Shown here in pieces: positions 1 through 39,721 of a DNA stretch of 64,000 nucleotides. The translations under genes were made by a program, and so were the position numbers. The stretch is from an uncultured Nitrososphaerales archaeon (lineage in GTDB: Archaea > Thermoproteota > Nitrososphaeria > Nitrososphaerales > Nitrososphaeraceae): positions 96,001 through 160,000 of the forward strand of contig CAVOHZ010000008.1 in NCBI GenBank assembly GCA_963695855.1, written 5' to 3'. Each line of letters opens with the position of its first letter. Positions within the stretch are counted from its first letter, which is position 1. The notes beneath the pieces were generated by a model. That model searched no databases. It was not told the DNA's origin and saw only the letters and a program-made list of their open reading frames with translations.

Positions 1-318
1 AATGTTTAGTAAAAAAAGGCTAACCCATGTTGAATTCGAGGTTTTAGGTATATTTTGTGACCAACTATCAAAAGAATTGGCTGGTTTTTTTGAGGCCAAG
101 GACTTTTTATTGGAATAAGAATTTCTAAAATATTTCTTGAGAAAAAAGAACTATAAAAACATTTAAAATAATACAAAACTAACAAACAATTTGTAAATTA
201 CTGACTTCTGTTTTAATTTCATGTTTATATTCCTATTTTATAATCAAAATTTTATAATTATTTCAAATAAAATTTGCAGGAAAATTCACATTCTGCTGAT
301 ATTATTTGACTGCTTTTA

Positions 319-819
319 TTATGTAGCCTTTTTCTTTGACATTTCTGCGCAGAAACCTTCGGCTGCTTTTTTAATCTCATCTAGAGAAAGGTCTTTCTTA
401 TGAGTTGCTATTGACCATTGATATCCAAATGGATCTTTTATCAATCCAACACGGTCTCCCCAGAATGCATCGTTGACTGGGTGTACTACAGTGGCACCTG
501 CAGATACAGCCTGATTAAAAGTTGAATCTACATCATTGACATATAGATAAAGCCAAACTGGATTTCCTCCAACAGATTGAGGTGAAAAAGATTTCATTTC
601 TTGGGATTCCTCAGATAACATAATAGCAGAATCTCCTATTATAATTTCTGCGTGCATGATAGTCTTATTATCAGGTCCATACATGCGATGACGTTCTTCC
701 GCATTGAATGATTTTTTATAAAATTCTATTGCACGTTCTGCATCTTTTATGATTATAAAAGGTGTAATGGTATGGTAGCCATCTGGTACTGGTTTTACAT
801 TAGCTGTCATATTTGTCAT
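319..819 (-). CDS. VOC/glyoxalase family protein (PhnB-like)
   Basis: Motifs 'AIEFYKKSF', 'IMHAEIIIGDS' and 'FWGDRVGLIKDPFGYQW'. Confidence 0.9.
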   Translation of the reverse strand: MTNMTANVKPVPDGYHTITPFIIIKDAERAIEFYKKSFNAEERHRMYGPDNKTIMHAEIIIGDSAIMLSEESQEMKSFSPQSVGGNPVWLYLYVNDVDSTFNQAVSAGATVVHPVNDAFWGDRVGLIKDPFGYQWSIATHKKDLSLDEIKKAAEGFCAEMSKKKAT

Positions 820-972
820 AATTATTATTACTTTATTTAAAAATATCCTAAAGAGACTAAATAGAAAATATTTTAAAAGAATTCTAATAATTTAGGTTTA
901 GTATATTAGACTATACTCTCATTGTAAGGAGAATTTGTTCTGTTTGGTTTTAAACTACATATTACGAATTAA

Positions 973-1036
973 TTTCACATCCATAAAACTTGGGATGGGA
1001 CCAACATTTAGGTCAAATTTGTTTCACATCCCACTG
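973..1036 (+). repeat. att-like site 1 (A-type left arm, core truncated after CCACTG)
   Basis: tgggaccaacatttaggtcaaatttgtttcacatcccactg. Confidence 0.85.
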
Positions 1037-1197
1037 AAAAAGATACAAAAATGTAGCTAATCTGCCGAATACTTTGTGATTCATAATTAACTATTTAATT
1101 TAATAATAATGTTTTAATAATATACTTATTTTTTTGAATGTAAAAACGGCAATGGATTTTTTATAATCTTTAAATTGTATAATCAATATTTCAGATT

Positions 1198-2297
1198 GTG
1201 AGAGCAGCCATTTTCGAGAAACAAGGATTTGAGAATCTCAAAATCAAAGGTGATGTGGAAAACCCTAAAGTTTTAGACTGTGATGTTTTAATTAAAGTTA
1301 TAGTAGCAGCAGTAAATCCTATTGATTATTATGTGATTTCTGGTTATAAAACAATACAACAACAAAAGGAAACAGACCAACTACGAAAACAAAAAGCTCC
1401 TCAAACAACAGAACTACCAGTAAATCCTCTTCCCCATATCCCAGGAGAGGAGTTTGTGGGAGTAGTTGAAAAGGTAGGATCTCATGTTAGAACAATAAAG
1501 AAAGGCGATAGAGTTGCTATCTATACCAGAGTTTTTGATAATACTTGTGATATGTGTATTAGTGGTAATGAAATGCTGTGTAGAAACGGTGGCATAATGA
1601 GTGTTCTTAATAATGGAGGTTTTTCTGATTATATTTCAGTTCCTGAAAGAAATGTATTTAAAATTCCTGATAATATTGATTGGTATTCAGCTGTAAGCTT
1701 GTCAGTATCAGGATTAACTGCATTTGATGCCTTGAATGAGTCACAATTAAAGATTAATGATTCATTACTCATTTTTGGTGCATCGGGAAATACAGGTATG
1801 ATGGCAGTACAATTAGGTAAGAGAATGGGATCTAGAGTTATTGCAGTTTCAACAAAAAAGTGGATTAAAGATGAATATGGTGCAGATTATCTAATTACAG
1901 ATTATGATAATGTAATAGATAAAGTTAAAGAGATAACTAATGGAATAATGACAGATGTTGTAATAAATTCTCTTGGCAGCGATACCTGGAAAGATAGTTT
2001 TTCTTCAATTGGAGTTAATGGCAGATGTATTTCTTTTGGTACATTGACTGGAAGTAATGTAGAATTAAACATACAGGAATTATATTCAAAGCAGTAAAAT
2101 TAATTGGATCTAATAGAGGAAATATAGAAGAATTTAGAGAATTGATAGAATTTATATCATATTCTAGTACAATTAATGATCCCTTAAAAATTAAAGTTTG
2201 GAAAAGATTTAACCTTGAAAATATAGAACAAGCCTTTGAGGCTCTTAATGAGAGGAAAAGAGAAGGAAGAGTGCTATTGGATATAAATAAAGAATAA
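1198..2297 (+). pseudogene. Zn-binding alcohol dehydrogenase, frameshifted near 2095
   Basis: C-x2-C-x7-C Zn loop and GASGNTG. After the TAA at 2097 another frame continues KLIGSNRG...REGRVLLDINKE* to 2297. Confidence 0.85.
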
Positions 2298-5100: not shown

Positions 5101-5253
5101 CCTAATAATCTTTGGTATTTTTTTAAATTATACCTTTATTAATATTTATTTTATTTTCTAAACAAATTAACAAGTATTATTTTACTAAGAAGAACTATGA
5201 AAATCGAATAATTATATGCTATTATTTGTTATTACCATTACTATTTTCTTTTT

Positions 5254-5580
5254 TCAAAATCTATTCACACTAATATAATACATCATTATCTCTTTTTGTC
5301 GAAACCTCTCTTTTAACTTCTCTTTGTATCCACTTAAAAGATTGTTATTTTCTTTTCGATCTTCACATATAACATGGTATATAGTATTTTCATCATTATA
5401 CAAAATGTCTGAATCTGGATCCTTCCAACTTCCAAGTATAGTATGTTCATCAGCAGAACATCCGCCAAACATTTCAACTAATTCATTAAAAGTGTCAACA
5501 AATTTTGATTTTTCTACTGGTTGTTTATTGTTATAATATAACGGTAAATAAATATCTACTCTGATTGAGGCTGATGACAA
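5254..5580 (-). CDS. Small conserved-looking hypothetical protein
   Basis: Motif pattern 'YLPLYYN...ELVEMFGGCS...GSW...LKERFRQKEI'. Confidence 0.7.
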   Translation of the reverse strand: MSSASIRVDIYLPLYYNNKQPVEKSKFVDTFNELVEMFGGCSADEHTILGSWKDPDSDILYNDENTIYHVICEDRKENNNLLSGYKEKLKERFRQKEIMMYYISVNRF

Positions 5581-5593
5581 CTTACATTGAATT

Positions 5594-5788
5594 TTATGGA
5601 TTCTTTTGAATTGTATAATTTATACCCATAGTATCTAAAATTTTACTGTAGTTCCTATTTATAGTATATTTATGTTGTCCTGTACTCTTTATAGGAATTT
5701 TTTTTGACAATAATATATAGAATCCTTCTACTTCTTCCTCTCTGGAATTGAAGGATATTGTTAATAAGCTAGATTCTAGATTCTGCAT
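5594..5788 (-). CDS. Small hypothetical protein, co-oriented 13 bp upstream of 5254..5580
   Basis: ATG start, operon-like spacing. Confidence 0.55.
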   Translation of the reverse strand: MQNLESSLLTISFNSREEEVEGFYILLSKKIPIKSTGQHKYTINRNYSKILDTMGINYTIQKNP

Positions 5789-6313: not shown

Positions 6314-6402
6314 TGGAAATTTATCGAAAAATTATTATTTGAAATAGAATAAGAATCCAAATGTCTAATTTCTTAACTATTATCATATCCTTTTTCTAAG
6401 AA

Positions 6403-8361
6403 TTATTTTTCTGCATGTTCTGTCAGAGTTTTTAATCTTGTTATATCTCTTTTGAAGAATAGGTCTAAAAACCAGTCAAACATAACTCTCAATTTTTTTT
6501 CAGTAGTTGGAAGATTTCCCCAATAATATAGCCTCCAGAATATCCACCCAATAAAACCTTGAATTTTATATCCAAATACTAAGCCTACACCATTTCTTTT
6601 TCCTATAAGCGCCATCATACCTTTAGTTCTGTAATTAAGAACTAATTCTTCTTTCTTATTGCATTTCTTTGAATATATTTCATTGATTATATTGTTAGAT
6701 GCTATTCTTGCTTCCCTTAATGCATGTTGAGCTGTAGGTGGATATGGTTGTCCAGTATTAGGATCTATTATAAAAGCACAATCTCCTAATGCAAAAATAT
6801 TAGTATATCCATTTATTTTCAGGTTTTCATTAGTAATTATTTTTCCTGATTTATTATGTTCGCAATTTAGAGTCCTTATAATGTTACTCGGTTTAACACC
6901 CCCAGCCCAAACTACTGTATAACTCCATATTTTTTCTTCATTTAATTTCACATAATTCTCACCTATTTCTTTGACTCTTGTATTTAAGATAATTTGAACT
7001 CCATTTTTTTCTAGTTTGTTTAAGGCAAATTCTGATAAATCATTTGAAACTTCTGGTAAAATTCGCGAACCTGAATTTATCAAGATTATTTTAATACATT
7101 TTAGATCAATGTTGTGATAATACTGTTTTACAGAATCACGAACAAAATCATTTAATTCTCCAACAGTTTCTATACCCGAAAAACCGCCTCCTACCACTAC
7201 CAATGTCATTAAATTTTTTTGTAATTCTATATTTCCATATTCCATATCAGCTTGCTCCAGCATATTTATAACATGATCTCTCAATAACAATGCATCACCA
7301 ATAGTCTTTATGGTGAACGCATTTTTAGATTCTCTTTCTAAGTCAAAAAAATTGGTCTCTCCTCCAAGCGCTAAAACTAGATAATCATATTTTAGAACTT
7401 TGATTTTATCATTTAATATATTGGAATATTTCCCTATTTTATATCTTAAAGATACTTCCTTTGCTTCAAGATTTATAGAATCAATATTTGCTTCATAAAA
7501 TCTAGCTCTTTTACAAAATGATCTGATGGGTGTAATTATATGTCTTGTTTCTATTGCACTTGCGGCTACTTCTGGGAGCATAGGAGTAAAGAGAAAAAAA
7601 TTATCTCTACTTACAATGGTTATATCTACATCAATGTTATCTTGAAATTCTTTTTGTAACTGTTGTAACACTTCTATTCCTGCAAATCCGCCACCCAGAA
7701 TCACAATCTTTTTTAGTGTTATTGGTTTGGTGCCATGTATTAGTTCAATATGTTTTTGATATGAATCAATTCTACCGAAAGATATATGGCATTTTGCACA
7801 CCTATATCGAGTACCAAATTTTGTAGAAAGGCTAGAGGAAACAAGACCTACAGTAATACCAAAAATGAGGTGGGTAATTAGTGAACTTATGAAAACAGTT
7901 GACAATCGTGATGAAAGTTCATATTCGATTAATTCTTGTTCATTCTGAGTCAATTTATATATTGTATTTATTGTTTCGGGTGCAATAACAAATTGATATA
8001 CTGGTATAAAGAAAATTATGAATACTACGATACCCGCAAAAATTCCATATATAATTCCATTGGATGGTTTACTAATATTTAATATTCCAGTTTTATATAA
8101 GAAGATGCCTATAACCACCCCGATTGAAATAGCAGTCACCATGTGTATTCCTATTCCTGCTATAATTACAGCATCTGAAGAATACACTCCAATAACATGT
8201 CCAAATACTATCCATGATAAGTAATAAGGCATTCCCATAACCACTTCAAAAATTGTTTTTGGAATAACAAATACAATTGCACCTACAATAGCTCCAACTA
8301 TTACAAAAAATATTTCTCTCTTTAGAGAAAAATCTATTTTTACTTTATTGTGATTGTTCAT
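6403..8361 (-). CDS. Type II NADH dehydrogenase-like flavoprotein with N-terminal membrane domain and C2H2 Zn finger
   Basis: GGGFAG, FLFTPML, VGGGFSGIE, ALGD and PPTAQHA motifs; N-terminal TM helices; CAKC-x12-HIELIH. Confidence 0.9.
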   Translation of the reverse strand: MNNHNKVKIDFSLKREIFFVIVGAIVGAIVFVIPKTIFEVVMGMPYYLSWIVFGHVIGVYSSDAVIIAGIGIHMVTAISIGVVIGIFLYKTGILNISKPSNGIIYGIFAGIVVFIIFFIPVYQFVIAPETINTIYKLTQNEQELIEYELSSRLSTVFISSLITHLIFGITVGLVSSSLSTKFGTRYRCAKCHISFGRIDSYQKHIELIHGTKPITLKKIVILGGGFAGIEVLQQLQKEFQDNIDVDITIVSRDNFFLFTPMLPEVAASAIETRHIITPIRSFCKRARFYEANIDSINLEAKEVSLRYKIGKYSNILNDKIKVLKYDYLVLALGGETNFFDLERESKNAFTIKTIGDALLLRDHVINMLEQADMEYGNIELQKNLMTLVVVGGGFSGIETVGELNDFVRDSVKQYYHNIDLKCIKIILINSGSRILPEVSNDLSEFALNKLEKNGVQIILNTRVKEIGENYVKLNEEKIWSYTVVWAGGVKPSNIIRTLNCEHNKSGKIITNENLKINGYTNIFALGDCAFIIDPNTGQPYPPTAQHALREARIASNNIINEIYSKKCNKKEELVLNYRTKGMMALIGKRNGVGLVFGYKIQGFIGWIFWRLYYWGNLPTTEKKLRVMFDWFLDLFFKRDITRLKTLTEHAEK

Positions 8362-8686
8362 TATTATGGTTTATTGTAGTTGCTCATTATAAAATATCAC
8401 ACGCTCTACAAATCGTTTATTAATTTCCACGAAAATGTCTTTATATTTGAATGCAAGAATTACTAAGAAACATCTGATTGTTATTTATGTTTCTAGTTAA
8501 ACTATTCATTAGATATAATCTCTCCTGACAAAGGAATATTGGTAGTATATAGATAAAATAAAAATATGATTTGTAAATGAGAATGACTGTTGTTGTAGAA
8601 AAATTGAGGATGATATTTGTTATGTATTATCTTTTGCACATAATAAGTATCAGTTATTGTTTTTGCTGTTTCTGTTCTTATCATAT

Positions 8687-9334
8687 TCATACATTTGGTT
8701 TAGGTAGTACCAATATTTGACCAGCCATATTAGGCAAGTGCACATGGCAGACGTAATTTATGATTCCGGGATTGTTTGCTACGAATGAAACAGTATTGAT
8801 TTGTCCTCTCTTAAGTTCAAAGGTTCCTATTCCATCTACAGTAATTACATGATGTGCTCCTTGTACTCCTATAAAATGAAGAGTGACTTTATCGCCTTGG
8901 TTAACAACTATTTGATCTGGAGTGAATGTAAATGATCTAAAGTCCCAAGCTCCTGCTTTATTTGGTTCTGTTATCTTGAATCCTCCTCCAGTTGGTATAG
9001 TCGAATTTACAGGAGGCTGCTCTGCTGGATGTAGTGGAGTATTCTGGGGACAAGTATCACATTTTACGGCAGCGTTTATGTTTGTCATTCCATCAAAATG
9101 TACTGTATTTATCCAGAATTCTTTGTTGGTTGTTTGATTTGGAACTACTGTCTTGAATGTAGTAACATTTGATGCCGATGGCATAGTAGTTGTCTTAGAG
9201 GGATAATTTTCTGCGAATGTCTTCTGCAGTGTTTGCCCGCTAATTTCAGTTAATACAGCGGTTGTTGATATAACAGCCATGAAGGTCATTGCTATCAGCC
9301 ACATTTGTTGTGAGCTGATTTTTTTCTTATTCAT
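8687..9334 (-). CDS. Exported cupredoxin (blue-copper) protein
   Basis: Signal/TM segment; FTPDQIVVNQGDKV, His in GAHH, C-x2-H-x3-M (YVCHVHLPNM). Confidence 0.85.
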   Translation of the reverse strand: MNKKKISSQQMWLIAMTFMAVISTTAVLTEISGQTLQKTFAENYPSKTTTMPSASNVTTFKTVVPNQTTNKEFWINTVHFDGMTNINAAVKCDTCPQNTPLHPAEQPPVNSTIPTGGGFKITEPNKAGAWDFRSFTFTPDQIVVNQGDKVTLHFIGVQGAHHVITVDGIGTFELKRGQINTVSFVANNPGIINYVCHVHLPNMAGQILVLPKPNV

Positions 9335-10177: not shown

Positions 10178-10768
10178 TTGAATTTAAAAATAATACCAAA
10201 TTTCTACAGTGAAAACTATGTTTTTACTATAATAATACCGATTCTAATTGTGATAGCTAGTGTATCCATTCCTAGTATTTTTAATACTTTATCAGTAGAT
10301 GGTCAAACCTCTTCTTTGTCGAGTTTTGATATTTCCCAATGTGATCAAGTAATAAATGCTACTTCTTCAAGAGGGATGACACATGGAAGTATAACTAACG
10401 ACTGTATAAACGGAACGAATGGTAATGACATTTTGTTTGGAGGATTGGGTTATGATATATTAAACGGAAACGAAGGGGATGATGAACTAATAGGCGATTC
10501 TGGAAACGATAAATTGTATGGGGGAGCAGGAGATGATGATTTAGTTGGTAATTCAGGAGATGATCTACTTGACGGTGGAGATGGAAATGATATACTTAAA
10601 GGAAATAAAGGTGATGATAAATTGATAGGAGGAAATGGTGATGATACCTTGATAGGTAATTCAGGTGCTGATTTTTATATATGTGGACCAGGAAATGATA
10701 TAGCAGTACAGTTTAACACTTTGGAAGGAGATAAAAAAACAGTAGATTGTGAAACAGTAACAAGATGA
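10178..10768 (+). CDS. Hemolysin-type (RTX) calcium-binding repeat protein
   Basis: Tandem G-x-x-G-x-D-x-L nonapeptides after an N-terminal TM segment. Confidence 0.9.
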   Translation: MNLKIIPNFYSENYVFTIIIPILIVIASVSIPSIFNTLSVDGQTSSLSSFDISQCDQVINATSSRGMTHGSITNDCINGTNGNDILFGGLGYDILNGNEGDDELIGDSGNDKLYGGAGDDDLVGNSGDDLLDGGDGNDILKGNKGDDKLIGGNGDDTLIGNSGADFYICGPGNDIAVQFNTLEGDKKTVDCETVTR

Positions 10769-23479: not shown

Positions 23480-23935
23480 TTACGGTTCTTGTTCTTCTCT
23501 CCAGCCCCATATCCCCTTCTTTTTCCATCTTATATAAGCAAAAATCCAAGTCTTGATCATTAACCCTACATCATATGAGCTATAGTCACTTGACCAATCT
23601 TCATCAGGTTTTAGATAACAGATAGTATTGTCTATGAACATATGGGGAGTTTGTGTTGGATCAAGATCAGGTTCTATTATACGTACTTTAGGAGGAAACA
23701 AAGGATAGTCTTGAACATATTCTATTAGAAAAATAAAGCATGTTTTTTCAAAGCTTCCTTCAATTTGAAGTTGTGTTACAGGTAATTCAATTACTAACCC
23801 AATATTCCCATTGTCCATAATGTGAAACTTCCATCTGGTATTCAATTCAAATGCTCCGGCTATCTCGTTTGCTTCGTATTGTATACTTCTATCACCATTT
23901 CCTACTACATTAATTGAGTTGTTCAAGTTAATCAC
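23480..23935 (-). CDS. E2 (UBC-fold) ubiquitin-conjugating-like protein
   Basis: 'DYPLFPPKVRI...PHMFIDNTICYL...W' matches the UBC YPxxPP / H-x6-C pattern. Confidence 0.85.
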   Translation of the reverse strand: MINLNNSINVVGNGDRSIQYEANEIAGAFELNTRWKFHIMDNGNIGLVIELPVTQLQIEGSFEKTCFIFLIEYVQDYPLFPPKVRIIEPDLDPTQTPHMFIDNTICYLKPDEDWSSDYSSYDVGLMIKTWIFAYIRWKKKGIWGWREEQEP

Positions 23936-25184
23936 TTGTTGGAATGCCTTTGGAACATATTTGGCAGTCGGGTATCCGTTCTAATATACGGTCTTCCTGA
24001 TATAAGACAAATGTTTCTACTTTATGATCAGGTAGGTTCTTATTAAACCAATAATAAATATCGGACTTGAATGATCCATCCATGTCTTTTTCTTCTAATA
24101 AAGTACTCAAAATAAATTTTACCGTTGGCAGGGTTATAAGATCAATATCTATTCCTAGCCCTGGTTGTGTCAACATGTCCTTTATATCTCTTCCATAATT
24201 TTTAATATAATTTTTATCTATAATTTGTGGCTTTTGAAATATTGTGTCATCACCATATTTTTTATATATACATCTATAACATATGGATTTTTTACGTGGG
24301 TCTATCCTTATCATTATTCCTCCAGTGATTTTTTCAAATGCACCTGCAAATATAATTGGTATATTTCTTCTGTAACCAAATTCATTAATCGATTCATTCA
24401 TGATATTGTCTCCTGTAGCAGAAACTATAAGGTCAGCCTTAGACAATAAATGATCAAAAAAATCTTCTATATTTCTATTTTCTCTAGAAAAAGGTTTTTC
24501 GATTGTAGTAATGTTAATTATAGGAACTCTGTCTAGAATATAATCTTTAACGGCTAATGTTTTGTATCGTCCAACATCCTTCAAAGAACAAATATGCCTA
24601 ACTATATTATGATCCATTATAACATCACCATCTATTAAAGTTAAATTTCCTACTCCACTCTTAGCTAGATGCAATGCTATTAATGAACCACCAGAACCTA
24701 GCCCTATTATTGCAACGTTTTTTTTATTAATTATTGATAACGGATATTCAGGAGTAGCAATCCTGAGATATAAATTTGAATAATCCTGTATAATAACAAG
24801 TATTTCGTATAAATTATTAGTCTCACTATCTTTGATAAAAATTTTTAAAGAACTTTCCTCTATTAATTCTTTCAAAGATATTTTAAATTGAGGAAGATCT
24901 GATATATTAAAAGTTAAATGAGAGTTGGCTAATATAATATTACCTAGATTGGGTAACTGATACGGTCGTGTGTTGTTGACGATTTGATCAATTCTTTGTA
25001 TTTGATATGTTGATTCATCAATGATAAAACCATTAACGGAAAATAGAAACTTTTCATTATTTTGGAATTTTTTGTCTAATAATATTTCTTTAACAGGAGG
25101 AAATATAACTAGAAATATAGTTTTTGTGTTTGTATTTGTTTTATCCTTATTATATAATATTAATTTATGATCTCTCATTGACAT
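23928..25184 (-). CDS. ThiF/MoeB/E1-like adenylyltransferase
   Basis: IIGLGSGGS..A..LAKSGVG.LTLIDGD...NIVRH; CYRC and C-terminal CQIC Zn motifs. Confidence 0.92.
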   Translation of the reverse strand: MSMRDHKLILYNKDKTNTNTKTIFLVIFPPVKEILLDKKFQNNEKFLFSVNGFIIDESTYQIQRIDQIVNNTRPYQLPNLGNIILANSHLTFNISDLPQFKISLKELIEESSLKIFIKDSETNNLYEILVIIQDYSNLYLRIATPEYPLSIINKKNVAIIGLGSGGSLIALHLAKSGVGNLTLIDGDVIMDHNIVRHICSLKDVGRYKTLAVKDYILDRVPIINITTIEKPFSRENRNIEDFFDHLLSKADLIVSATGDNIMNESINEFGYRRNIPIIFAGAFEKITGGIMIRIDPRKKSICYRCIYKKYGDDTIFQKPQIIDKNYIKNYGRDIKDMLTQPGLGIDIDLITLPTVKFILSTLLEEKDMDGSFKSDIYYWFNKNLPDHKVETFVLYQEDRILERIPDCQICSKGIPTSD

Positions 25185-26178
25185 TTTTAGCTTTCTCCTT
25201 TAAATAAATATTGGATAAAGAAAAAGCTTTTAAACCTGTAAATACATTTTTTAACCTCCTTTTCAAGACACTAATTCTTGTCTTATCACTTAGATGAGAA
25301 GTCTTATCACTTAGATGAGAAGTCTTATCAATATAATATTGTGATCTATCCACCATATTTTTTATTTTAGGCAATAATTCTACTCTATTAAAAAAAATAT
25401 CTGAAAATAGAATTTCTTCAACTATTTTAGTAAATTTACGATCTAATGTAACGCCGATACTAATTCTATCATTCATAGATATATTGAGATGTGGAAATTT
25501 AATAAATACAGAATAGACAATTTTATCCTTTGAAGTATACCAATTATCATTTGAACTGTAAATTTCTTCATAAAATAATTTATAATTCCGAGACTTATTA
25601 GATTGTGAATGGAGAAATGTTTTGCCAGTATAGTCTTTCAAATTTTTCGATAGATTGTCAACGAAATTTCGAACGTTTATTGTTTTACCATTAAAAAATT
25701 TATTTGACTGTTGTATATTAGTTATCCTCTTTATTTGAAGATCTTTTTTAACAAATTCATTTTTATCAAAATAATAATTAGTGGCTATGAGATTATAATC
25801 ATAATCATAAAAATCTATTATTAATGATAAATAGTTTCGTTTATGGCTATTCTGTAAGAGAAACAACTCAGCTTGTTTATCATCACCATTACTGGGACCG
25901 CCATATCCTAAATGCTTATGCCAATTTCCTAGATAAGTCAGATTATTTCTTTCCATTTGTTTGGTTATATTTATTGCAAAATCTTCATCCATTTCAAAAT
26001 AGACAGGTGTTCTTTTTGCATTAGCTGATGGTAACTGAATTATTTTTAAGATTATTAGATATTCTCCTATGATCCTACCAAAAAGTAATCCACCTGTTTC
26101 AACGTTTTTGTGACTATTACTTTCTTCGATGATATCATCAATTGTATTCTCTGTTATGATTAACTTGTTATGACTCAT
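25165..26178 (-). CDS. JAB/MPN+ metallopeptidase domain protein
   Basis: ETGGLLFG and GNWHKH...PSNGD (JAMM motif). Confidence 0.88.
   Translation of the reverse strand: MSHNKLIITENTIDDIIEESNSHKNVETGGLLFGRIIGEYLIILKIIQLPSANAKRTPVYFEMDEDFAINITKQMERNNLTYLGNWHKHLGYGGPSNGDDKQAELFLLQNSHKRNYLSLIIDFYDYDYNLIATNYYFDKNEFVKKDLQIKRITNIQQSNKFFNGKTINVRNFVDNLSKNLKDYTGKTFLHSQSNKSRNYKLFYEEIYSSNDNWYTSKDKIVYSVFIKFPHLNISMNDRISIGVTLDRKFTKIVEEILFSDIFFNRVELLPKIKNMVDRSQYYIDKTSHLSDKTSHLSDKTRISVLKRRLKNVFTGLKAFSLSNIYLKEKAKNVNERS
25280..25330. repeat. 21-bp tandem repeat (about 2.4 copies) in the JAB gene
   Basis: gtcttatcacttagatgagaa x2 + gtcttatca; encodes DKTSHLS repeats. Confidence 0.9.
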
Positions 26179-26333
26179 TGTAATGTATAAAAATGTTTAA
26201 TATTGGGAATGGTTACTTTGCCTGTATCGACATCAACCATATTATCTTCATCTTTTCTTCTAAGAACTACTTCTGCAGCTTTATTTTTTATCCCTTCTAA
26301 ATCTTCAAACACATGCTTCAAATCTCTGGGCAT
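26175..26333 (-). CDS. 52-aa peptide, first gene of the JAB-E1-E2 operon (absent from the ORF track)
   Basis: Manual translation MPRDLKHVFEDLEGIKNKAAEVVLRRKDEDNMVDVDTGKVTIPNIKHFYTLQ*; its TGA overlaps the JAB ATG (ATGA); TATA-like box upstream. Confidence 0.72.
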   Translation of the reverse strand: MPRDLKHVFEDLEGIKNKAAEVVLRRKDEDNMVDVDTGKVTIPNIKHFYTLQ

Positions 26334-26353
26334 GATATTATATATTAATAAGA

Positions 26354-26363
26354 TATATTTAAG
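26354..26363 (-). promoter_or_regulatory. Putative TATA box of the peptide-JAB-E1-E2 operon
   Basis: cttaaatata on the minus strand, 21-30 nt upstream of ATG 26333; weak given the AT-richness. Confidence 0.4.
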
Positions 26364-26402: not shown

Positions 26403-26655
26403 TCGTTAATAAAATAATTCTCCAATATTGTATCATTATACATAGAAAGGAAGAATTGTAACCAGCTATAAACGTGAAATAGATTGCATTCATTTGTGAT
26501 ACATGAATAGTAATCATGGATAGTAATCATCAAAAGATTCAGTCCGATCCTTGAAATACTGGTTAACTCTTTCCATCACATTTTTCTGAAATGGTGAATG
26601 TAGATAATGTTTTAATTCAATTACGTTACATGCTTTATCGTACCATCATATACCA
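26403..26655 (-). mobile_element. IS6 transposase C-terminal remnant
   Basis: Homologous to 57151-57425 (MERVNQYFKDRTESFDDY). Confidence 0.8.
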
Positions 26656-26659: not shown

Positions 26660-27276
26660 GATTCCCGCTTGACATTTAAAAGCTGATTATGTTGAAACAT
26701 GTAATTGTGATTATGGCTGTCCATGTAATTTCAACGGGGTTCCTACGTATGGTTTTTGTAGAGATTTACTATTATATCATATAAGAGAAGGAAATTATAG
26801 AGTTATAAAATTAGATGGTTTAGATGTATTTAGTGCATGTTCTTGGCAAGGCAATACCTGAAGGAAATGGCACAATGCAACTCTATATTACTAAAAAATC
26901 ATTGGAAGATAATAATGCAAAACATGCATTAATTGATATATTTTCAGGTAAAGCTAAAGGAGAAGATCCTTTTGCTATCTTTGCAGGGACAATAAAATAT
27001 TTTCTTGAACCTCAATTTGTAGATATCAATGTCAAGATAGATGGAAAGAAAAGTAGTTTCTCTGTTCCCGATATCATGGATGTACAATTAGAAAGTTTTA
27101 TAAATCCTGTAACTGGGGAAGAACAAGATACAAAGATACAACTACCAAAAGGGTTTATTTGGAAACTTGCAGAAGCAGCAAAAACAAAGATAATGCGTAT
27201 TACTACTCCAAGTTTAAATTTTGATGATTCTGGCAAGAGTTCATTTTATTCAGTTGTAGAGTATAGAGGACCATAA
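26660..27276 (+). pseudogene. DUF1326-like protein, 5' end disrupted and frameshifted
   Basis: Manual translation ADYVETCNCDYGCPCNFNG.PTYGFC upstream of ORF 26824; sits next to DUF2182, the usual partner. Confidence 0.75.
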
Positions 27277-27395
27277 CTGTAGTAATAATAATAAATTCTC
27301 TATCTTCGGATTTCAAATTTGATTGGAGTGGATCATAATTTTAGTAAGTAATTAAGGTTAAGTATTTTAAAGTAATTAAGGTAAAATATTTTATA

Positions 27396-28211
27396 GTGTA
27401 TAAAGTACAAAAAATAATTCTTGTATCTCTAATCTTTGCTTCTTTGATAGCATGGATGTTCTCTATCAGGCAACCTGCCATAATGATGGATACCATGATA
27501 ACACTAAATCCTATTACAGTATTGCTATTTACTTTAGTCTGGACAGTAGGAATGGTTGCCATGATGTTTCCAGCTATTGTTCCTATGGTGTTATTGTATA
27601 ATCGATTGATAATTGCAGAGAATAAGAGTGATTATCTTTTTGATATTTCTAAACAAAAAAATAAGCGACAATTTCCATTAATCTTTTCCATTAATTATTC
27701 TGTAATGACGATAGTTTTTGTTACATCTTATCTTTTAGTGTGGTCATTAACTGGAATTTTACTCTTGTTGTCTTGGTCTTTCTTAATGAATAACTTCTTC
27801 ATAACTTATGGAGCAAAAGAATTAGATATTGTGTATGGATTGCTACTTGTTATTACTGGGCTATACCAATTTAGTTCATTAAAAGGAAAGTGTCTGGGAT
27901 ATTGTGAATCTCCTTTAGCCTTCTTTACGAGGAGATGGAAAGGAAATGGGATAAGAGGTGCAATAAAAATGGGAACATATCATGGACTATATTGCTTAGG
28001 GTGTTGTTGGCCTTATTTTCTATTAATGGTAGCATTAGGATGGATGAATATAGCATGGATGGGTCTATTTGCTGGAATAATATTTGGAGAAAAAATATGG
28101 TCAAAGGGAATATGGATATCCAGGTTTTCAGGAATTGCTTTTGCTATTGTAGGAACCCTGACTATTTTTGGAATGATTACATTGCATAATGATATTATAA
28201 ATATGCGTTAG
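27396..28211 (+). CDS. DUF2182 metal-binding membrane protein
   Basis: 'AMMFP', 'YQFSSLK..CL..C..P', 'GLYCLGCCW', 'EK' motifs. Confidence 0.88.
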   Translation: MYKVQKIILVSLIFASLIAWMFSIRQPAIMMDTMITLNPITVLLFTLVWTVGMVAMMFPAIVPMVLLYNRLIIAENKSDYLFDISKQKNKRQFPLIFSINYSVMTIVFVTSYLLVWSLTGILLLLSWSFLMNNFFITYGAKELDIVYGLLLVITGLYQFSSLKGKCLGYCESPLAFFTRRWKGNGIRGAIKMGTYHGLYCLGCCWPYFLLMVALGWMNIAWMGLFAGIIFGEKIWSKGIWISRFSGIAFAIVGTLTIFGMITLHNDIINMR

Positions 28212-28466
28212 TAAATTCATTTTGTCAAAAAGAAGATGATTCTATAGTGTTATAAGATTAATTATAAAAATATCTTTTAAGAATCGAGTTCGCCTAAATA
28301 TTCAGTAAGCTAGTCTGGAGTGGACTCGTCAATGAGTAGGGTTCGACTTGTATTTAGCTTTTATTATTAGAAACTTATTTTGAATTAATAATAATAAATA
28401 TTATTATAATAATAAGTTTGACTGTACATTTCCGAGAATATTATAGAAGCACATGAACGTAAAATT

Positions 28467-28531
28467 TGGGGCAAAAATTTAGGTCAGATTTGTTTCACAT
28501 CCCACTGACCCCATTTATAAATGGATTCATA
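28467..28531 (+). repeat. att-like site 9 (A arm+core, R4 arm)
   Basis: tggggcaaaaatttaggtcagatttgtttcacatcccactgaccccatttataaatggattcata. Confidence 0.88.
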
Positions 28532-28584
28532 TACTTTTTGTGTATCATACCATTTGTAGAAAAAAAGGAGGAATAAACCGGTGA

Positions 28585-28885
28585 ATGCTTATGAAACTAA
28601 TTAATACCATTGGAAAAATTCAAACGGTTCCAAATTCTACTACTAAATAAATATTAAATAAATTTCTTGGATATATGAAAGGTAATGGTTCTTCTTACTA
28701 TCATCAAAATAATAATCTAAAAGTTGTTATTCCATTTGCCATTTATTTGGATCCATTACTACATTCTATAATATCAATAAAAAAGAACAAATACTATCAT
28801 TTCTAAACATAAAAATAAAGAATCAAGAAGATGACCCAGATAAGAGATGGATTACAACATGGAACAATCACCTGGCTACATGTTA
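28585..28885 (+). pseudogene. Integrase family 2, N-terminal remnant
   Basis: MKLINTIGKI...YMKGNGSS..HQNNNLKV...DPDKRWITTWNNHL; paralog of 30906; stops and frameshifts. Confidence 0.7.
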
Positions 28886-28956
28886 GCAATCATAAGATTC
28901 ATCGAAAATCGCTGAATAGCGAAATACAGGATCGTAGAATTCTATAATAGGTTCTA

Positions 28957-30051
28957 TTATACGAAAGAAACATGTGAAAGGAACAAGTCGTCAAAAAATT
29001 GAATAAAATCCTTATTATTAATAACATCATCTCCAAATATCCCAAAGCTTATTACTTTGCCATTTCCATATTCCAATTCATAAGCAGCTATAAGATAATT
29101 GTACATAGATTGAGCTTTATAATCTATTAAAATATTTACATTTGGATTGGTTATATATTGCTCTTCGTGATGAACGTATGAAAATGGATTGTTATTAAAA
29201 TCAATAGAACATGAACTACCACAACCGAAATTACTACCCACCCATTCAGTAGTTTCATCAGCCCATCTTTCTTTAATATCTCTCCAAGCCTTTTCTCCAT
29301 CGAAAGCCCAACGATGTCCTTGAACGAGTGTGATCTGCTGATCCATTGGATCATAAATAACTTCAGTATAGAATACATTTGAATCAAGTAAAATAAGGAT
29401 ACCGCCGTTTTCTACAAATTTTTTGAAGCTATAGTATTCTTCTTGAGTTACATATTCTTGGTGTCCTAGAATAATAAATTTATAGAGATTTTCGGCTTTC
29501 TCACTAAACAATAAACCATTATGTATATCTATGTCCGTTAAAAATGATACTTCCATATTCGGGGACAGGAATGAGATGCGATCAGCTAAATGTTTTAAAC
29601 CACTAGACTTCTTATTTAAAAATGCTAGTTCCTTGGTAGGAACCTGAGATGATAATAACTGAAGATCTGTAGTTACGAATTCATTTTGAGTAACTTTGCC
29701 ATATTTTTTAAAAAAAATATAAAATGAGTTGTCATAGGCTGCCATAGTGAAGGTAGGCAATACAAAGGCTATTTTGTTATCCTTTTCTTGGCTAAAAGGA
29801 GTAACGATAGATTTTCTATCCTCTTCAAGTGTTGGGCCACTTTTATATGAACGAAAATCTTTTATAATTTCTTTTAAATAGTAATTTTGGATAATTGTGT
29901 TATCTAAATTTTTTTCATCCATTTCGCTTGCATATTCATCTTCAAAATCATAATAAGTCTTCTCACTTTGCGAAAAAGTATTACCAACGGAGAGTATAGA
30001 TGAAGAAAAGATCAGAATAACAGACAGTGCCAAATTAAAAGTAATAAGCAC
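28957..30051 (-). CDS. Exported protein, N,N-dimethylformamidase beta-subunit-like domain
   Basis: PTFT.AAY, LGHQEYVT, FVENGG.L..LDSN.FY pattern; signal peptide. Confidence 0.6.
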   Translation of the reverse strand: MLITFNLALSVILIFSSSILSVGNTFSQSEKTYYDFEDEYASEMDEKNLDNTIIQNYYLKEIIKDFRSYKSGPTLEEDRKSIVTPFSQEKDNKIAFVLPTFTMAAYDNSFYIFFKKYGKVTQNEFVTTDLQLLSSQVPTKELAFLNKKSSGLKHLADRISFLSPNMEVSFLTDIDIHNGLLFSEKAENLYKFIILGHQEYVTQEEYYSFKKFVENGGILILLDSNVFYTEVIYDPMDQQITLVQGHRWAFDGEKAWRDIKERWADETTEWVGSNFGCGSSCSIDFNNNPFSYVHHEEQYITNPNVNILIDYKAQSMYNYLIAAYELEYGNGKVISFGIFGDDVINNKDFIQFFDDLFLSHVSFV

Positions 30052-30685
30052 AATTACTTATTCCAAAAATTATTTAAATAGGGAATGTAGGACTCTCTCT
30101 ATACATTTGTTAATGCTTTCTTACAGTTAGTATCTTATTTTTTCTTATATAGTGACAATATAAAATAAAATTATATCCTTATATTCTTAGTAACAAATCT
30201 ACAAACGGTAACTTTTAAAAATCGGATCGTTATATAATCTACATACATCAATAACATATCTTATCAATTTATCATGGTCCATAAATCCATGAACCATGCA
30301 ACAAGGCAGGAAAGTTATCAAATTTAATTAGAGAGAATAACAAGTATTATGTCAGTTGGAAATGAGTTTTCCACTCGTTACCTCTCTAGAAGCATATATT
30401 GCTGAATTAGAAGCTAAAATATCGAATGTGATAATCACAAAAAAACTAAATAACAATCGAAAATACAAATTACAAAAGACGTTATTAGATTCTAATTCAA
30501 GAGGCAATCAAGATCAGACTTAAATAGATCATCCTGAAGCAATATTTTAAGGAAATTTATCAACGACTAAAAGAAAGATAAGTTCTGTTTGTTATTTGAT
30601 CCAATAACGAAAAATCCATTTGCTTTATAATATTGAAATAAGTACGGGATTAACTGTTATTAAAAAATCTTTAATCTAAAGAAGT

Positions 30686-30845
30686 AACTGGTCGCACTTT
30701 ATAGAAGGGTTCACATCCTACTGGTTTGACTACGAAGCCATTGAACCCACTTTTATAATGAAATATATAATGCTAATTAAAAATCCATTTTTTAGGTCAA
30801 ATTTGTTTCACATCCCACTGGCCCCATTATATAAGTGGGGTCATA
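30686..30845 (+). repeat. Double att-like site 10 (B arm+core, linker, A arm+core, R4 arm)
   Basis: aactggtcgcactttatagaagggttcacatcctactgg ... taggtcaaatttgtttcacatcccactggccccattatataagtggggtcata. Confidence 0.92.
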
Positions 30846-30905
30846 TACTTTGAATTTGATATTAGAATTTGTAAAGAAGGATAAGAGTAAGAGTAAAGAA
30901 AGAAA

Positions 30906-31380
30906 ATGTCACTAAAACTATCTACAACAATAGGAAAGATTAAGAATATTCTTAATACAAAAAATATAGAGATTATAAATGAATTCCTTGAGTATATGAG
31001 AAGTAATAATTCTTCAGAACATCATCAAAATAACAATTTAAAGGTCGAAATATCATTTAGTAATTTTATAGGTAAAGATAAATCTTTTTATGGCATCAAT
31101 AAAAAAGAACAAATTAGAATTTCTTAATACTAAAATTAAAAACTATGAGGAAGCTTCTGATAAAAGATAGATAACTACTTGAAATAACTATCTAAATAGG
31201 TTTAGACTATTTTATAGATGGTTGTATAATCATGAGAAAGATATTGATCATGAAAATTGGCAAACTCCTGAATTAAAATAAAGAATAAAAAAAGTAAAAG
31301 AATATCCTCATACCTAGAAAGGGAAATTTGGGAAAAAATCAATTATTATCAATAATCTAATACGAGCCTTATACTAGGAA
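30906..31380 (+). pseudogene. Integrase family 2, N-terminal remnant
   Basis: EFLEYMRSNNSSEHHQNNNLK, then broken frames NNYLNRFRLFYRWLYN...SSYLEREIW (SAM-like integrase N-domain). Confidence 0.72.
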
Positions 31381-31482
31381 TGAGGTCGCTTGGAAATTTA
31401 GAATACAAATGTCATAAAACATCAAATAATAGATAGCTAAAAATGTATCTACGATCTTTGGTTAGTCAGTATATTTTGGGAA

Positions 31483-32346
31483 TTAATCATAGACATATCC
31501 CAAATCTATTGTTTTACGTAATTCAGATTCATTGTAAGTCCAAGGATCCATTATTGCATCATTACCATTGAGAGAAGGATGTAAATTCAGATGGTCTTCT
31601 TGCCACTGACTCCATATACGATCAATATTGGCATGATGTAACCAAAATAAAATATCAACAGGAGATAAGCTAGTAGCCATGATGCCTCCTACCCAGCGGT
31701 GAAGTCTATTATGTGTATCGGTTTCTAATCCAAATGTTCTATATTTCCAGCCTTCTAGTGCATCAGTAAATTTTGTGAAAGTTTGTTGTTGTTTTACTAT
31801 ATTTATATCACTTGAAGGGGGTAATCTATTAGCATTCGGATCTAAACCTGGTCTTCTTTGAACGTTTCTTGGTATGCCTTCAACAACTACGGTCGGAGTA
31901 AAATTTTTTAGCCAATCGGGAATATCTGTGTCTACAGTCCAATCCCAATATGGAATATATAGAGAAGGATTCCATGCCCTTAACCCTTGTTCTAATTCAA
32001 ATACATACGCTCTATGCCAAGGCAAAAATCTTTGTGCTCCAACCTGAGGTCTTGGCATTTGTGGGTGTCCATGCATATTGTGATCCATGTTTGCATGATA
32101 GGATGCAAGATTACCATATTCTCCAAGGTTTATTAAAATTTCTATTCCTTCTAAAAACAATTCTTTTTCTTCTCTTGCCATTTGAGATTGATTTTTTCTA
32201 ACTAATGGTTCTGCAGTTAATCTTCTAATTTCTTCATCATCATGTGGTGTAAAAAAAAACATAGACAAATGTGAATGTCGATGCTGTGCTTCCATATTTT
32301 TTGTTCTTAATGCAAAGTCAGGTATATTCATATCTTTAATTTGCAC
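31483..32346 (-). CDS. Tyrosinase family (type-3 copper) protein
   Basis: CuA H...H...FLPWHR; CuB HNRLHRWVGG...D.LFWLHHANIDRIW. Confidence 0.93.
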   Translation of the reverse strand: MQIKDMNIPDFALRTKNMEAQHRHSHLSMFFFTPHDDEEIRRLTAEPLVRKNQSQMAREEKELFLEGIEILINLGEYGNLASYHANMDHNMHGHPQMPRPQVGAQRFLPWHRAYVFELEQGLRAWNPSLYIPYWDWTVDTDIPDWLKNFTPTVVVEGIPRNVQRRPGLDPNANRLPPSSDINIVKQQQTFTKFTDALEGWKYRTFGLETDTHNRLHRWVGGIMATSLSPVDILFWLHHANIDRIWSQWQEDHLNLHPSLNGNDAIMDPWTYNESELRKTIDLGYVYD

Positions 32347-38491: not shown

Positions 38492-39721
38492 TTAGAAATT
38501 AAAATCGAATTTCAAAGGCTCAGTATATGCCAACTTTTCCAGGGTTTTTCTTTCACCTTGTTCTATTAATTTTTTTGTTGTTTTAGTTGAGAAATCTGCA
38601 TTCTGGAACATTGTAGGCGACTCTGATTCACTTCTTGTAATTCTTGTAACAGATTTTATTTCTGCACCATAGTTTTCAATTAGATTAGTATACTCTTCTT
38701 TTATTTTTTTTAATTCCTCTTCTTTTATTTTGGTTTTATCTGTATATTTTTCGAGTATATCATATAATTTTTCTACTAGGTTTATATGTCTAGTTATTAA
38801 CTTTGACAATTGTATATTGTACATATCTTTGTCGCAGAATAAAATCTCTTTATAACGATTAATGACTTCAACCATATTTGTGGGAAGACGATCTATCTGT
38901 TGGGGATAGTTCTCTACAATAAAAATATTTTTATCATTTCTTGGAGATACAAAAAGAACCTCTCTAATTGGTGTATTACTAAGTAGGCTTCCATCCCAAC
39001 CATATACATTGTCTTCTACCTTAACCCAAGGAAATCCATAAATTGGATAACCAGAACAAGCTAGGATATGTTTTGCCTTAATTTCTGTTAGAGTATTATC
39101 AAAAACAAGAGGTTTTCCAGTCATAACATTTACAGCAGTCATAATAAGTCGGTAAACATTTGGTTTTTCTTCTTGCGTGGCAGCTAGATTTAATTTTTTA
39201 TAATCAATATACTTTTCAAGTGTTTTTTCAAGCGGAGAATGATCATATATATAAGTCCAATTCTTTGGATCAAAATAACTACGCTCATCCGTTTTTCTTA
39301 TTAGACTAGAACTATTTCCCAATTGCCACCTAGGAACAAACATTTTTGGTACTCCAAAAATTGCAGCGTTTACAGAAGCTGACGCTATTTTTTTGACCAA
39401 ATATTCTTTATTATAAGAGTCCCACTCATACATCCATAAATCCGGAATAAGCTGTATATTACTTTCACTTACTTCAAGCCAAAAATCCTCTAAATCTTTT
39501 TCTGGTTGATCGCTTTTACTACCTGCAATGATGGCAGCATTTACAGCACCTATAGAAGTACCAGCAACTATATCTATTTTTATTTTTTGTTTTACTAGTG
39601 CCTTAAACACACCGCAGGCAAAAGATCCGAAAGAGCCACCTCCTTGCATAATAAGAACATTTTCTAAAGATCTTGTTCTTTTATGTCTTGGTGGGCTTGC
39701 TTCTTTTATTTCATAACTCAT
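38492..39721 (-). CDS. Patatin-like phospholipase
   Basis: QGGGSFG, GTSIG nucleophile elbow, WDGS. Confidence 0.92.
   Translation of the reverse strand: MSYEIKEASPPRHKRTRSLENVLIMQGGGSFGSFACGVFKALVKQKIKIDIVAGTSIGAVNAAIIAGSKSDQPEKDLEDFWLEVSESNIQLIPDLWMYEWDSYNKEYLVKKIASASVNAAIFGVPKMFVPRWQLGNSSSLIRKTDERSYFDPKNWTYIYDHSPLEKTLEKYIDYKKLNLAATQEEKPNVYRLIMTAVNVMTGKPLVFDNTLTEIKAKHILACSGYPIYGFPWVKVEDNVYGWDGSLLSNTPIREVLFVSPRNDKNIFIVENYPQQIDRLPTNMVEVINRYKEILFCDKDMYNIQLSKLITRHINLVEKLYDILEKYTDKTKIKEEELKKIKEEYTNLIENYGAEIKSVTRITRSESESPTMFQNADFSTKTTKKLIEQGERKTLEKLAYTEPLKFDFNF

Follow-up and report, generated by a model that had tools for sequence, protein, structure and literature searches.

A short conserved peptide encoded with JAB, E1 and E2 enzymes in Nitrososphaeraceae and Asgard archaea: a candidate protein modifier without a ubiquitin fold

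What does a set of ubiquitin-type enzymes act upon when no ubiquitin-like protein is encoded beside it? This question is raised by a 64,000-nucleotide (nt) stretch of DNA, here called the window, from an uncultured Nitrososphaerales archaeon of the family Nitrososphaeraceae (assembly GCA_963695855.1, contig CAVOHZ010000008.1, positions 96,001 to 160,000; GC ~29%), in which positions 23480-26333 of the minus strand hold four tightly coupled genes for a peptide of 52 amino acids (aa), a JAMM/JAB protease, a Cap2-like E1 and a UBC-type E2. A sequence-only reading of this stretch had described four overlapping genes and proposed that the peptide, which it noted does not end in Gly-Gly, is a modifier or substrate that is trimmed by the JAB, adenylated by the E1 and transferred through the E2. 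The features it described are all present in the sequence: the TGA of the peptide gene and the ATG of the JAB gene share an ATGA, the JAB and E1 genes overlap by 20 nt, and the E1 and E2 genes overlap by 8 nt, provided that the E2 starts at GTG 23935 (an alternative start, TTG 23926, lies one base past the E1 stop codon). In the analysis described here, the small open reading frame (ORF) is a real gene that is tied to the enzymes, and the reading favoured for the module, at a probability of about 0.6, is a self-contained and reversible system of peptide tagging by ubiquitin-type enzymes, whose tag would be short, probably disordered and not a beta-grasp protein; the JAB would trim this peptide, and the E1 would adenylate its C-terminal Phe or Tyr and pass it to the E2 cysteine.

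The reality of the peptide gene rests on its conservation. All 11 loci of the same genus that cover the region encode the peptide at 73-90% aa identity, and in these loci the identities of the other proteins are 78-84% (E1), 78-87% (E2) and 60-71% (JAB). The conserved block of the genus peptides runs from Met1 to ...TIPNIKHF and is followed by an aromatic residue, after which the tails differ in both sequence and length (TLQ, NDS, DS, SDT, NGT or LLNDP). The peptide is under strong purifying selection, with a ratio of nonsynonymous to synonymous substitution rates (dN/dS) of 0.07-0.17 in 11 pairs with the window copy and a median of 0.25 over 66 pairs.

A larger set of loci was searched with a pattern that requires an ORF to start with MPR and to end with H-[YF] plus 0-6 residues. 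The count covered 53 loci in which the JAB N-terminus is preserved and is preceded by 160 nt or more of sequence, and 51 of them have an ORF of this pattern between -20 and +150 nt relative to the JAB start; in one exception (L060) the peptide gene is 153 nt upstream, and in the other (L034) it is frameshifted. The pattern matches 52 of 2889 ORFs of at least 28 aa, and each of these 52 lies upstream of a JAB gene; the matches comprise 26 distinct peptides, and since the collections share some loci, these are not independent cases. When 17 peptides from all clades are compared, M1, P2, R3, D34 and H47 never vary and P43 hardly does, the middle of the peptide is charged and varies in length, and the candidate modifier ranges from 32 to 54 aa across loci. 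The universal H-[YF] is followed by TLQ, NDS, DS, LLNDP, FLL, GN, F, S, RN or directly by a stop codon. A conserved upstream small ORF and a C-terminal motif, which the sequence-only reading had proposed to look for in homologous loci, are thereby both found, and the signature that stands in place of the absent Gly-Gly end is H-[YF] with a variable tail or a stop. The peptide and JAB genes overlap in the Nitrososphaeraceae, and spacers of 12-153 nt lie between them in other clades. That the small ORF is kept in the genus loci and recurs in distant clades is confirmed far beyond chance.

The peptide gene is single-copy in the window's own genome, and its tail motif ends no other frame of that genome (one strict hit among 49298 frames). 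Several gene callers had already predicted the small ORF, which is represented by 33 database clusters. Searches for a known family found no match in Pfam, NCBIfam or PADLOC (0 of 17 peptide sequences in the latter), a word-index search for distant relatives returned close relatives only (33 hits at 71-92% identity), and an ESM Atlas search with the peptide gave no usable hit. A full hidden Markov model scan of 1.84 billion representatives yielded 10 peptide hits, all of at most 86 aa and none fused to a larger protein.

Sequence elements and RNA libraries also bear on expression of the gene. The TATA-like element upstream of the peptide ATG (Table 1) has a counterpart, a AAATATAT-like element at an equal distance upstream of the peptide gene, in 11 genus relatives; it is a candidate archaeal promoter, from which the operon transcript would be leaderless or near-leaderless. 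Contigs from RNA libraries of four metatranscriptome runs in two studies cover the small ORF and run on into JAB (for example, record 6 of X15 spans 25975-26323 with 3 differing letters), with DNA carry-over possible. None of the contigs from these four runs extends past 26323 and the bin 26416-26500 is uncovered; such contigs cannot show transcript ends, and their limits give nothing firm on a leaderless start.

Comparison across archaeal genomes provides a second view of the association between the peptide and the enzymes. In a first sample, the E1 was found in 13 of 24 other genomes of the genus and in none of 36 genomes of other genera, and in a class-wide sample it was present in 3 of 7 genomes of the genus and in none of the 393 others. 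The genus peptide is present in 12 of the 24 genomes, that is, in 12 of the 13 E1 carriers and in none of the 11 genomes that lack the E1; in the sole E1-positive genus genome without a peptide match (G013), the E1 lies at a contig end. More distant relatives of the E1, at 33-55% identity, occur in metagenome contigs and in named genomes ('Candidatus Hodarchaeota archaeon' and 'Promethearchaeota archaeon', to which database names add Hodarchaeales and Heimdallarchaeota), and in all these clades a small ORF is present just upstream of JAB. An E1 tree resolves clean, strongly supported clades for the Nitrososphaeraceae genus, a sister Nitrososphaeraceae clade, an Asgard clade and an acidic clade (L055-L060); the metagenome loci L049-L053 are labelled Asgard by similarity only.

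The Hodarchaeota/Promethearchaeota module carries a 33-aa peptide that usually ends exactly in ...KHY. A sample of the Asgard phylum contained the E1 in 14 of 301 genomes, and the pattern finds the peptide in 10 of these 14 loci, with a further copy in L084 that uses a non-ATG start; two of the remaining loci (L085 and L094) are without upstream sequence, and the third (L095) has a weak and probably different E1. Eight of the 10 pattern matches end exactly in ...HY followed by the stop codon. Measured against the copies in L077, the median identities over 13 Asgard loci are 94% for the peptide, 46% for JAB, 58% for E1, and 66% and 77% for two E2 proteins (E2a and E2b, respectively). The peptide is the best-conserved component of the module in these loci, and a peptide identity of 94% argues for many simultaneous constraints on its sequence; by analogy, this relation between peptide and enzymes resembles that between ubiquitin and its enzymes.

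Two further gene arrangements were noticed in related loci. In the metagenomic locus L045, positions 132-2159 (+) encode a 676-aa fusion of JAB and E1 (P0119), just upstream of which lies a peptide ORF that is truncated at the contig end and ends in ...KHYRQ. In the sister Nitrososphaeraceae clade, an ORF of 72-76 aa lies ~290 nt upstream of the peptide gene (L017:1314-1544, L018:416-646 and L019:515-733, +); its product has a hydrophobic N-terminus and a C-terminus rich in Gly, Cys and Trp, and may be a secreted small peptide.

The enzymes encoded with the peptide belong to recognizable families by Pfam and PADLOC profiles (Table 1). The JAMM residues E27, H87, H89, S96 and D99 of the JAB are invariant in 19 of 19 proteins. 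For the structural model of the window JAB (predicted local distance difference test score, pLDDT, 82.6), the closest match in the VIA fold comparison is Pyrococcus furiosus JAMM1 (Z 17.4, root-mean-square deviation (rmsd) 1.8, 128 residues aligned), Cap3 is matched at Z 15.4 (9ild_A, rmsd 2.6, 137 aligned), and Foldseek reports a Caldiarchaeum Rpn11 homologue at 1.8e-09. The NCBIfam Cap3 model scores this protein at 17.6 bits against a cutoff of 200, and other JAMM proteins score as high or higher. The JAB model (m7db091c898f0, residues 1-150) also gives middling matches to the N-terminal domain of Atg7 (3vx8_A, Z 7.8, rmsd 3.6, 127 aligned; 3vh2_A, Z 6.9, rmsd 3.5, 119 aligned; 3ruj_A, Z 6.0, rmsd 3.5, 118 aligned), a likeness that may be just a common arrangement.

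The C-terminal part of the JAB, which is shortened in sister-clade proteins of 222-223 aa, has best VIA matches of only Z 5.6-6.7, among them DR_1245 (Z 6.7, rmsd 8.1, 110 aligned) and Med17 (Z 6.5, rmsd 2.6, 89 aligned), and an ESM Atlas search with this domain gave no usable hit. A 'SFPxxFPxGxIxID'-like motif had suggested an inactive E2, RWD or UEV domain; this idea is not supported, as hhalign gave a probability of 5% against the E2 alignment and Pfam no hit in 16 members. The 3' part of the window JAB gene contains a 21-nt direct tandem duplication (25281-25329, -) that encodes SHLSDKT twice with a partial third copy; it is absent from aligned relatives and sits in the low-confidence helical tail of the model.

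In the E1, residues G161, G163, G165, G166, D187, N193 and R196 are invariant among 28 sequences, and the Zn site of the Asgard proteins reads CxxC...CxxH. In profile comparisons with the PDB, the best match is Cap2 (4.5e-16), followed by PaaA and MccB (both 6e-14), then ThiF (4e-12) and MoeB; judged by these relatives, its nearest solved kin act on extended peptide ends and not on beta-grasp domains. The PADLOC E1-E2 profiles align across the E1 N-domain (for PDLC00854, protein residues 19-309 on profile positions 217-517), and among the 50 VIA matches listed, Cap2 (7to3_A) alone spans this domain (model residues 20-399 on chain residues 165-600; Z 19.5, rmsd 5.7, 312 aligned), so that the archaeal protein appears to be in effect Cap2 minus its E2 domain. 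The E1 model (pLDDT 76.8) otherwise matches E1 folds at Z 20-23, including MoeB (Z 22.9, rmsd 2.9, 223 aligned), UBA5 (Z 22.4, rmsd 4.0, 234 aligned), Atg7 (Z 21.7, rmsd 3.5, 246 aligned) and MccB (Z 20.3, rmsd 3.9, 225 aligned), with PaaA at Z 19.7 (rmsd 3.0, 208 aligned). A special link to ATG7 was considered and rejected: the match to the Atg7 C-terminal domain is tied with those to MoeB and UBA5, so no closer relation can be claimed, and among the matches listed the N-domain matched Cap2 only. None of the 28 sequences has a crossover-loop cysteine, the stretch from the first CxxC to the QPGLG motif being free of Cys.

A co-fold of the peptide with the E1, which the sequence-only reading had suggested, was run with peptide residues 1-48 and ATP. 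It scored 0.51 (runs of 0.57, 0.51 and 0.13), the best of three controls scored 0.00, at least 56% of contacts are shared between the runs, and the pLDDT of the partner peptide is 40-54. Of 157 solved complexes, 116 reach the mark used for such co-folds, as do 2 of 215 mismatched pairs; only 18 of those 157 complexes, and both of the mismatches, do so at scores of 0.60 or below. The co-fold gives weak support to the pairing of E1 and peptide.

In the E2, the catalytic Cys106 (codon 23618-23620) stands 8 residues after His98, and a YPxxPP motif is present. All 21 aligned sequences keep H98, C106, W114, P82 and P89, which bears out the active-site-like cysteine of the sequence-only reading. Pfam UQ_con is matched by 19 of the 21 proteins (best 4.2e-07), and the best PDB profile matches are eukaryotic UBC E2s (UBE2A, Rad6 and UBE2W, ~1e-04); by these features the protein classes as a UBC-superfamily E2 with a catalytic cysteine. 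The E2 is a separate downstream gene in all loci, with one such gene in the Nitrososphaeraceae and two to four in the other clades. Around the module of one acidic-clade locus (L059), three full E2 paralogues are accompanied by a 413-aa protein with a weak E2-like region (Table 1). With the catalytic motifs of all three enzyme types conserved, the enzymes look active.

In the favoured reading, the four translationally coupled genes would be made from one promoter, and the JAB would cut the 52-aa precursor right after His47-Phe48, a site suggested by the clades whose gene ends at H-Y. Since most Asgard genes already end at His-Tyr, no trimming would be needed there, and the JAB of these species would be mainly a de-conjugating isopeptidase. 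The Cap2-like E1 would bind the extended C-terminal stretch (...TIPNIKHF) and adenylate its carboxylate with ATP. Because the E1 is without a crossover-loop cysteine, the acyl-adenylate would be attacked directly by Cys106 of the E2, which would be held in place by the Cap2-linker-like N-domain of the E1. The E2 would then hand the peptide to an amino group, probably that of a lysine, on target proteins, and the JAB could reverse this step. A fixed H-[YF] that is followed by variable tails or by a stop codon is the pattern expected if the C-terminus behaves like a processed, activated modifier end. According to the Cap2 report, the active site of the Cap2 E1 holds a disordered CD-NTase tail that lacks a terminal Gly-Gly, and in vitro the enzyme can do without its E1 cysteine (10.1101/2022.03.31.486616). 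Both a disordered tail without Gly-Gly and a dispensable E1 cysteine have a precedent in this lineage.

Several points weigh against this proposal. Each step of the chemistry is inferred, as are the point of cleavage and the targets, both that they exist and which they are, and no target, E3 or reader was found encoded in the locus. The peptide ends in a bulky aromatic residue where ubiquitin-type modifiers have Gly, and the tagging model does not explain the invariant MPR at the N-terminus. No catalytic cysteine is common to all of the E1s (26 of 28 sequences have Cys199), which makes a classical E1~thioester step improbable and means that transfer straight to the E2 has to be assumed. In addition, the co-fold is weak, with one of three runs at 0.13 and no interface reported. 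What stands of the original proposal of a JAB-trimmed modifier or substrate is the conserved ORF with its C-terminal motif, while its adenylation and transfer steps stay conjectural.

The genes around the module offer few clues to its role. Neither the 20 neighbouring window ORFs that were scanned nor, by Pfam, the 76 proteins encoded in the flanks of 19 related loci showed a beta-grasp, CD-NTase, RING or effector gene; the locus and its flanks gave no hit to the Ub, ThiS or MoaD families, and no MBL gene adjoins the operon in the window. These scans agree with the sequence-only reading, which had seen no beta-grasp protein, CD-NTase or E3 nearby, and which had named a standard ubiquitin-like protein or CD-NTase in homologous loci as a finding that would speak against it; none was found there. 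The neighbours are a mixed set of metabolic genes, what flanks the module is not kept from one genome to the next, and the Pfam scan showed no recurring partner among the 76 flanking proteins. Conserved synteny or targets were also sought by searching eight window neighbours in larger related loci, where only an unrelated phosphoesterase gave weak hits. Beside the operon lies a set that looks related to copper and phenol oxidase (26824-32346; Table 1), of which DUF1326, PpoB2 and DMFA2_C are not kept next to the operon in relatives and the tyrosinase has no hit there either. A patatin-like phospholipase (38492-39721, -) and an RTX-repeat protein (10178-10768, +) are encoded 12-13 kb off on either side, with no evident link to the module.

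Table 1. Positions of the module, its parts and neighbouring genes in the window; the row for L059 uses positions of that locus
Feature	Position	Strand	Remarks
Peptide gene	26175-26333	-	52 aa + stop; translation MPRDLKHVFEDLEGIKNKAAEVVLRRKDEDNMVDVDTGKVTIPNIKHFYTLQ
Peptide, conserved core	26190-26333	-	residues 1-48; ends ...IKHF
Peptide, variable tail YTLQ	26178-26189	-	proposed precursor tail
JAB gene	25165-26178	-	337 aa
JAB, JAMM (MPN+) metalloprotease domain	25699-26178	-	residues 1-160 of 337; Pfam Prok-JAB 1e-05, PADLOC JAB 2.2e-12
JAB, C-terminal alpha+beta domain (~residues 163-296) and low-confidence helical tail	25165-25698	-	from model secondary structure
E1 gene	23928-25184	-	418 aa; PADLOC E1-E2 2e-29
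E1, N-terminal beta-rich domain	24780-25127	-	residues 20-135; equivalent to the Cap2 linker between E2 and E1 domains
E1, adenylation (ThiF/MoeB-type) domain	23928-24752	-	Pfam ThiF 1.5e-27; GxGxxG, N193/R196, Zn site CxxC...CxxC
E2 gene	23480-23935	-	151 aa; PADLOC E2 7e-09
TATA-like element	26353-26362	-	TTAAATATAT; 20-29 nt upstream of peptide ATG
DUF1326	26824-27276		copper/phenol-oxidase-looking set
PpoB2 copper chaperone	27396-28211		copper/phenol-oxidase-looking set
DMFA2_C-like protein	28957-30051	-	copper/phenol-oxidase-looking set
Tyrosinase	31483-32346	-	copper/phenol-oxidase-looking set
L059 E2-like genes	1375-1821 (+), 1856-2281 (-), 5187-5606 (-), 7802-9040 (-)		acidic clade

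With respect to cellular role, a peptide conserved at 94% beside enzymes at 46-77%, together with two to four E2 paralogues in some lineages, suggests a broad signal for degradation or regulation over a single-purpose defence switch. The patchy distribution and changing gene context are what would be expected of an accessory module; a peptide so extremely conserved, with no defence genes as neighbours, is in keeping with a cellular signalling or proteostasis tag. A role in regulation or proteostasis is put at a little short of even odds, ahead of one in conflict or defence, and the remainder is left to something else.

An antiviral or conflict function, in which infection would lead to attachment of the peptide to proteins of the virus or the host in the manner of the Bil and Bub systems or of CBASS (an antiphage signalling system based on cyclic oligonucleotides), is the alternative that survives best; it differs from the favoured reading in function only, is compatible with the same tagging chemistry, and has a substantial though clearly minority claim. 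The characterised prokaryotic E1/E2/JAB sets of this lineage are, as far as is known, all linked to defence, and a defence system would also suit the presence of the module in only 13 of 24 genus and 14 of 301 Asgard-phylum genomes, its unconserved flanks, and the transposase genes found near 3 of the 19 flank-scanned loci (L070, L052 and L059). Against this, no defence-type gene was found among the 76 flanking proteins or the 20 window ORFs, there is no effector, the peptide is without a PADLOC match, the E1 tree consists of clean lineage-specific clades, and the peptide is far better conserved than the enzymes, unlike the components of an arms race. The further suggestion of the sequence-only reading, an antiviral module carried as cassette cargo, gains no support from neighbours without a defence theme or from the housekeeping-like conservation of the peptide, and no search for repeat or cassette structure was made.

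It is unlikely, at well below the standing of a defence role, that the enzymes conjugate another substrate, for example a beta-grasp protein whose gene lies outside the locus or some unlinked protein's tail, with the peptide as a regulator, an adaptor or a pseudo-substrate inhibitor that keeps the E1 or JAB occupied pending a signal. Such an arrangement would be in keeping with the conjectural activation of the peptide and the weakness of the co-fold, and a first look found 10 ThiF-type candidates elsewhere in the window's genome. The peptide, however, co-occurs strictly with the operon and nowhere else, and variable tails after a fixed H-[YF], with some genes stopping there, are what would be expected of a processed and activated end. 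In addition, the tail motif ends no other frame, the flanks contain no ubiquitin-like or ThiS hit, and the window's own genome, which is 99.87% complete, has no SMODS/CD-NTase match.

Slightly less probable again is the proposal that the peptide is itself the end product, its C-terminus being activated by the E1 for modification in the style of MccB-MccA or PaaA-pantocin, or for cyclisation, while the JAB removes a follower tail. PaaA and MccB are the second and third solved relatives in the E1 profile search, the peptide is conserved at its start (MPR...) as well as at its end (...H[YF]), and one acidic-clade locus (L057) has a LanM-like gene for a lanthipeptide synthetase ~1.5 kb downstream on the other strand (6399-8603, -). 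Every locus that covers the downstream region nevertheless contains one to four E2 genes with the invariant catalytic cysteine, and pathways of this type for ribosomally synthesized and post-translationally modified peptides are not known to use an E2. No exporter, immunity or tailoring genes are conserved beside the module, and the charged peptide has no Cys-rich or Ser/Thr-rich core. That the small ORF is a mere upstream ORF or leader that controls JAB translation, as its shortness, its overlap with the JAB start in Nitrososphaeraceae and its omission from an ORF track might suggest, is very improbable given its low dN/dS, its prior prediction in the database clusters, and an amino acid sequence conserved across phyla from the invariant MPR start to the H[YF] end while the DNA context differs.

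If the tagging proposal is correct, this would be a ubiquitin-like system whose tag is no ubiquitin-like protein, and E1/E2 chemistry would need no ubiquitin fold; a free transferable unit of 33-52 aa would redefine the minimal modifier for such chemistry and provide a tag that is very small, can be genetically encoded and brings its own writer and eraser. The archaea most closely related to eukaryotes would gain a eukaryote-like, UBC-type E2 system with a Cap2/ATG7-style E1, which bears on the diversification of ubiquitin-type signalling. It can be suggested tentatively, with less confidence than the tagging proposal itself, that the module represents a third kind of protein tag after beta-grasp ubiquitin-like proteins and Pup: a disordered peptide of 30-50 residues ending in His-Tyr/Phe, attached by E1-E2, removed by a JAMM protease, and native to Hodarchaeales/Heimdall-group Asgard archaea and soil Nitrososphaeraceae. 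The tagging hypothesis is directly testable with four small proteins. Full-text literature searches, which had supplements and subscription journals outside their scope, found no description of a peptide modifier with an archaeal E1/E2/JAB set.

To our knowledge, what is transferred in every E1/E2 conjugation system so far characterised is a beta-grasp protein or, in CBASS, a tail that belongs to a whole enzyme. Pup, a short, charged and intrinsically disordered tag with a conserved C-terminal end (GGQ/GGE), is joined by a glutamine-synthetase-like ligase via its C-terminal Glu side chain and not by E1/E2 enzymes. The archaeal peptide resembles Pup in one respect, as a short, charged, apparently disordered tag with a conserved C-terminus, and differs in its E1/E2/JAB operon enzymes, its H-Y/F end and the lack of any sequence relation (no genome-wide PafA search was made).

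MccB (microcin C7) and PaaA (pantocin A) are E1-like and adenylate the C-terminal region of short ribosomal peptides; unlike the archaeal E1, which is always accompanied by E2 and JAB, they have neither partner, and their products are small-molecule antibiotics. The SAMP/UbaA/JAMM1 system and the Ub-E1-E2-RING-Rpn11 operons of Caldiarchaeum and Asgard archaea share archaeal hosts with the module, whose JAMM fold is closest to P. furiosus JAMM1, and the latter operons also contain a UBC-superfamily E2. In contrast, the modifiers of these systems are beta-grasp proteins ending in GG, SAMP conjugation has no E2, and the Caldiarchaeum type has a RING E3; on the SAMP-E1 model, the window E1 scores 46.1 bits against a cutoff of 450. 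Compared with a generic ubiquitin-like cascade, the module has the E1 adenylation domain and, at the level of sequence, the E2, and is without a beta-grasp GG modifier and a crossover-loop cysteine.

The Bil and Bub systems (operon classes 6d/6e, Iyer et al. 2006) are described as having separate E1, E2 and peptidase genes and a small modifier gene at the operon end (PMC1779556, PMC11601596), with a peptidase that matures the modifier and, in Bub, oxyester intermediates and a serine protease (PMC11601596). The archaeal module is organized in the same way, with separate E1, E2 and peptidase genes and a small terminal gene in one operon, whereas its peptide is too short for the beta-grasp fold of the Bil and Bub modifiers.

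The nearest parallel is type II CBASS. Cap2 is the best solved relative of the E1, the E1 N-domain aligns with the Cap2 linker, the JAB model has a fold match to Cap3 among other JAMM proteins, and the end activated by Cap2 is, according to its report, a disordered tail and not a beta-grasp domain. Unlike type II CBASS, the module has no effector and no CD-NTase as substrate, in the locus or the genome, and no fused E2-E1 Cap2: its E2 is an unfused, downstream and canonical-looking UBC protein (His-x8-Cys spacing, YPxxPP, Trp), its JAB has an extra C-terminal domain, and its hosts are archaea. On the 6A-MBL test (the cap2_3 equivalog, an E2-E1-JAB fusion that is partnered by a metallo-beta-lactamase, MBL), the E1 and JAB score 71.6 and 37.5 bits against a cutoff of 320. 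The system is thus closest to CBASS Cap2/Cap3 while departing from the defining features of every family tested, and where CBASS activates the tail of a whole enzyme, the corresponding tail in these archaea is the free-standing product of a gene of its own, 33-54 aa in length.

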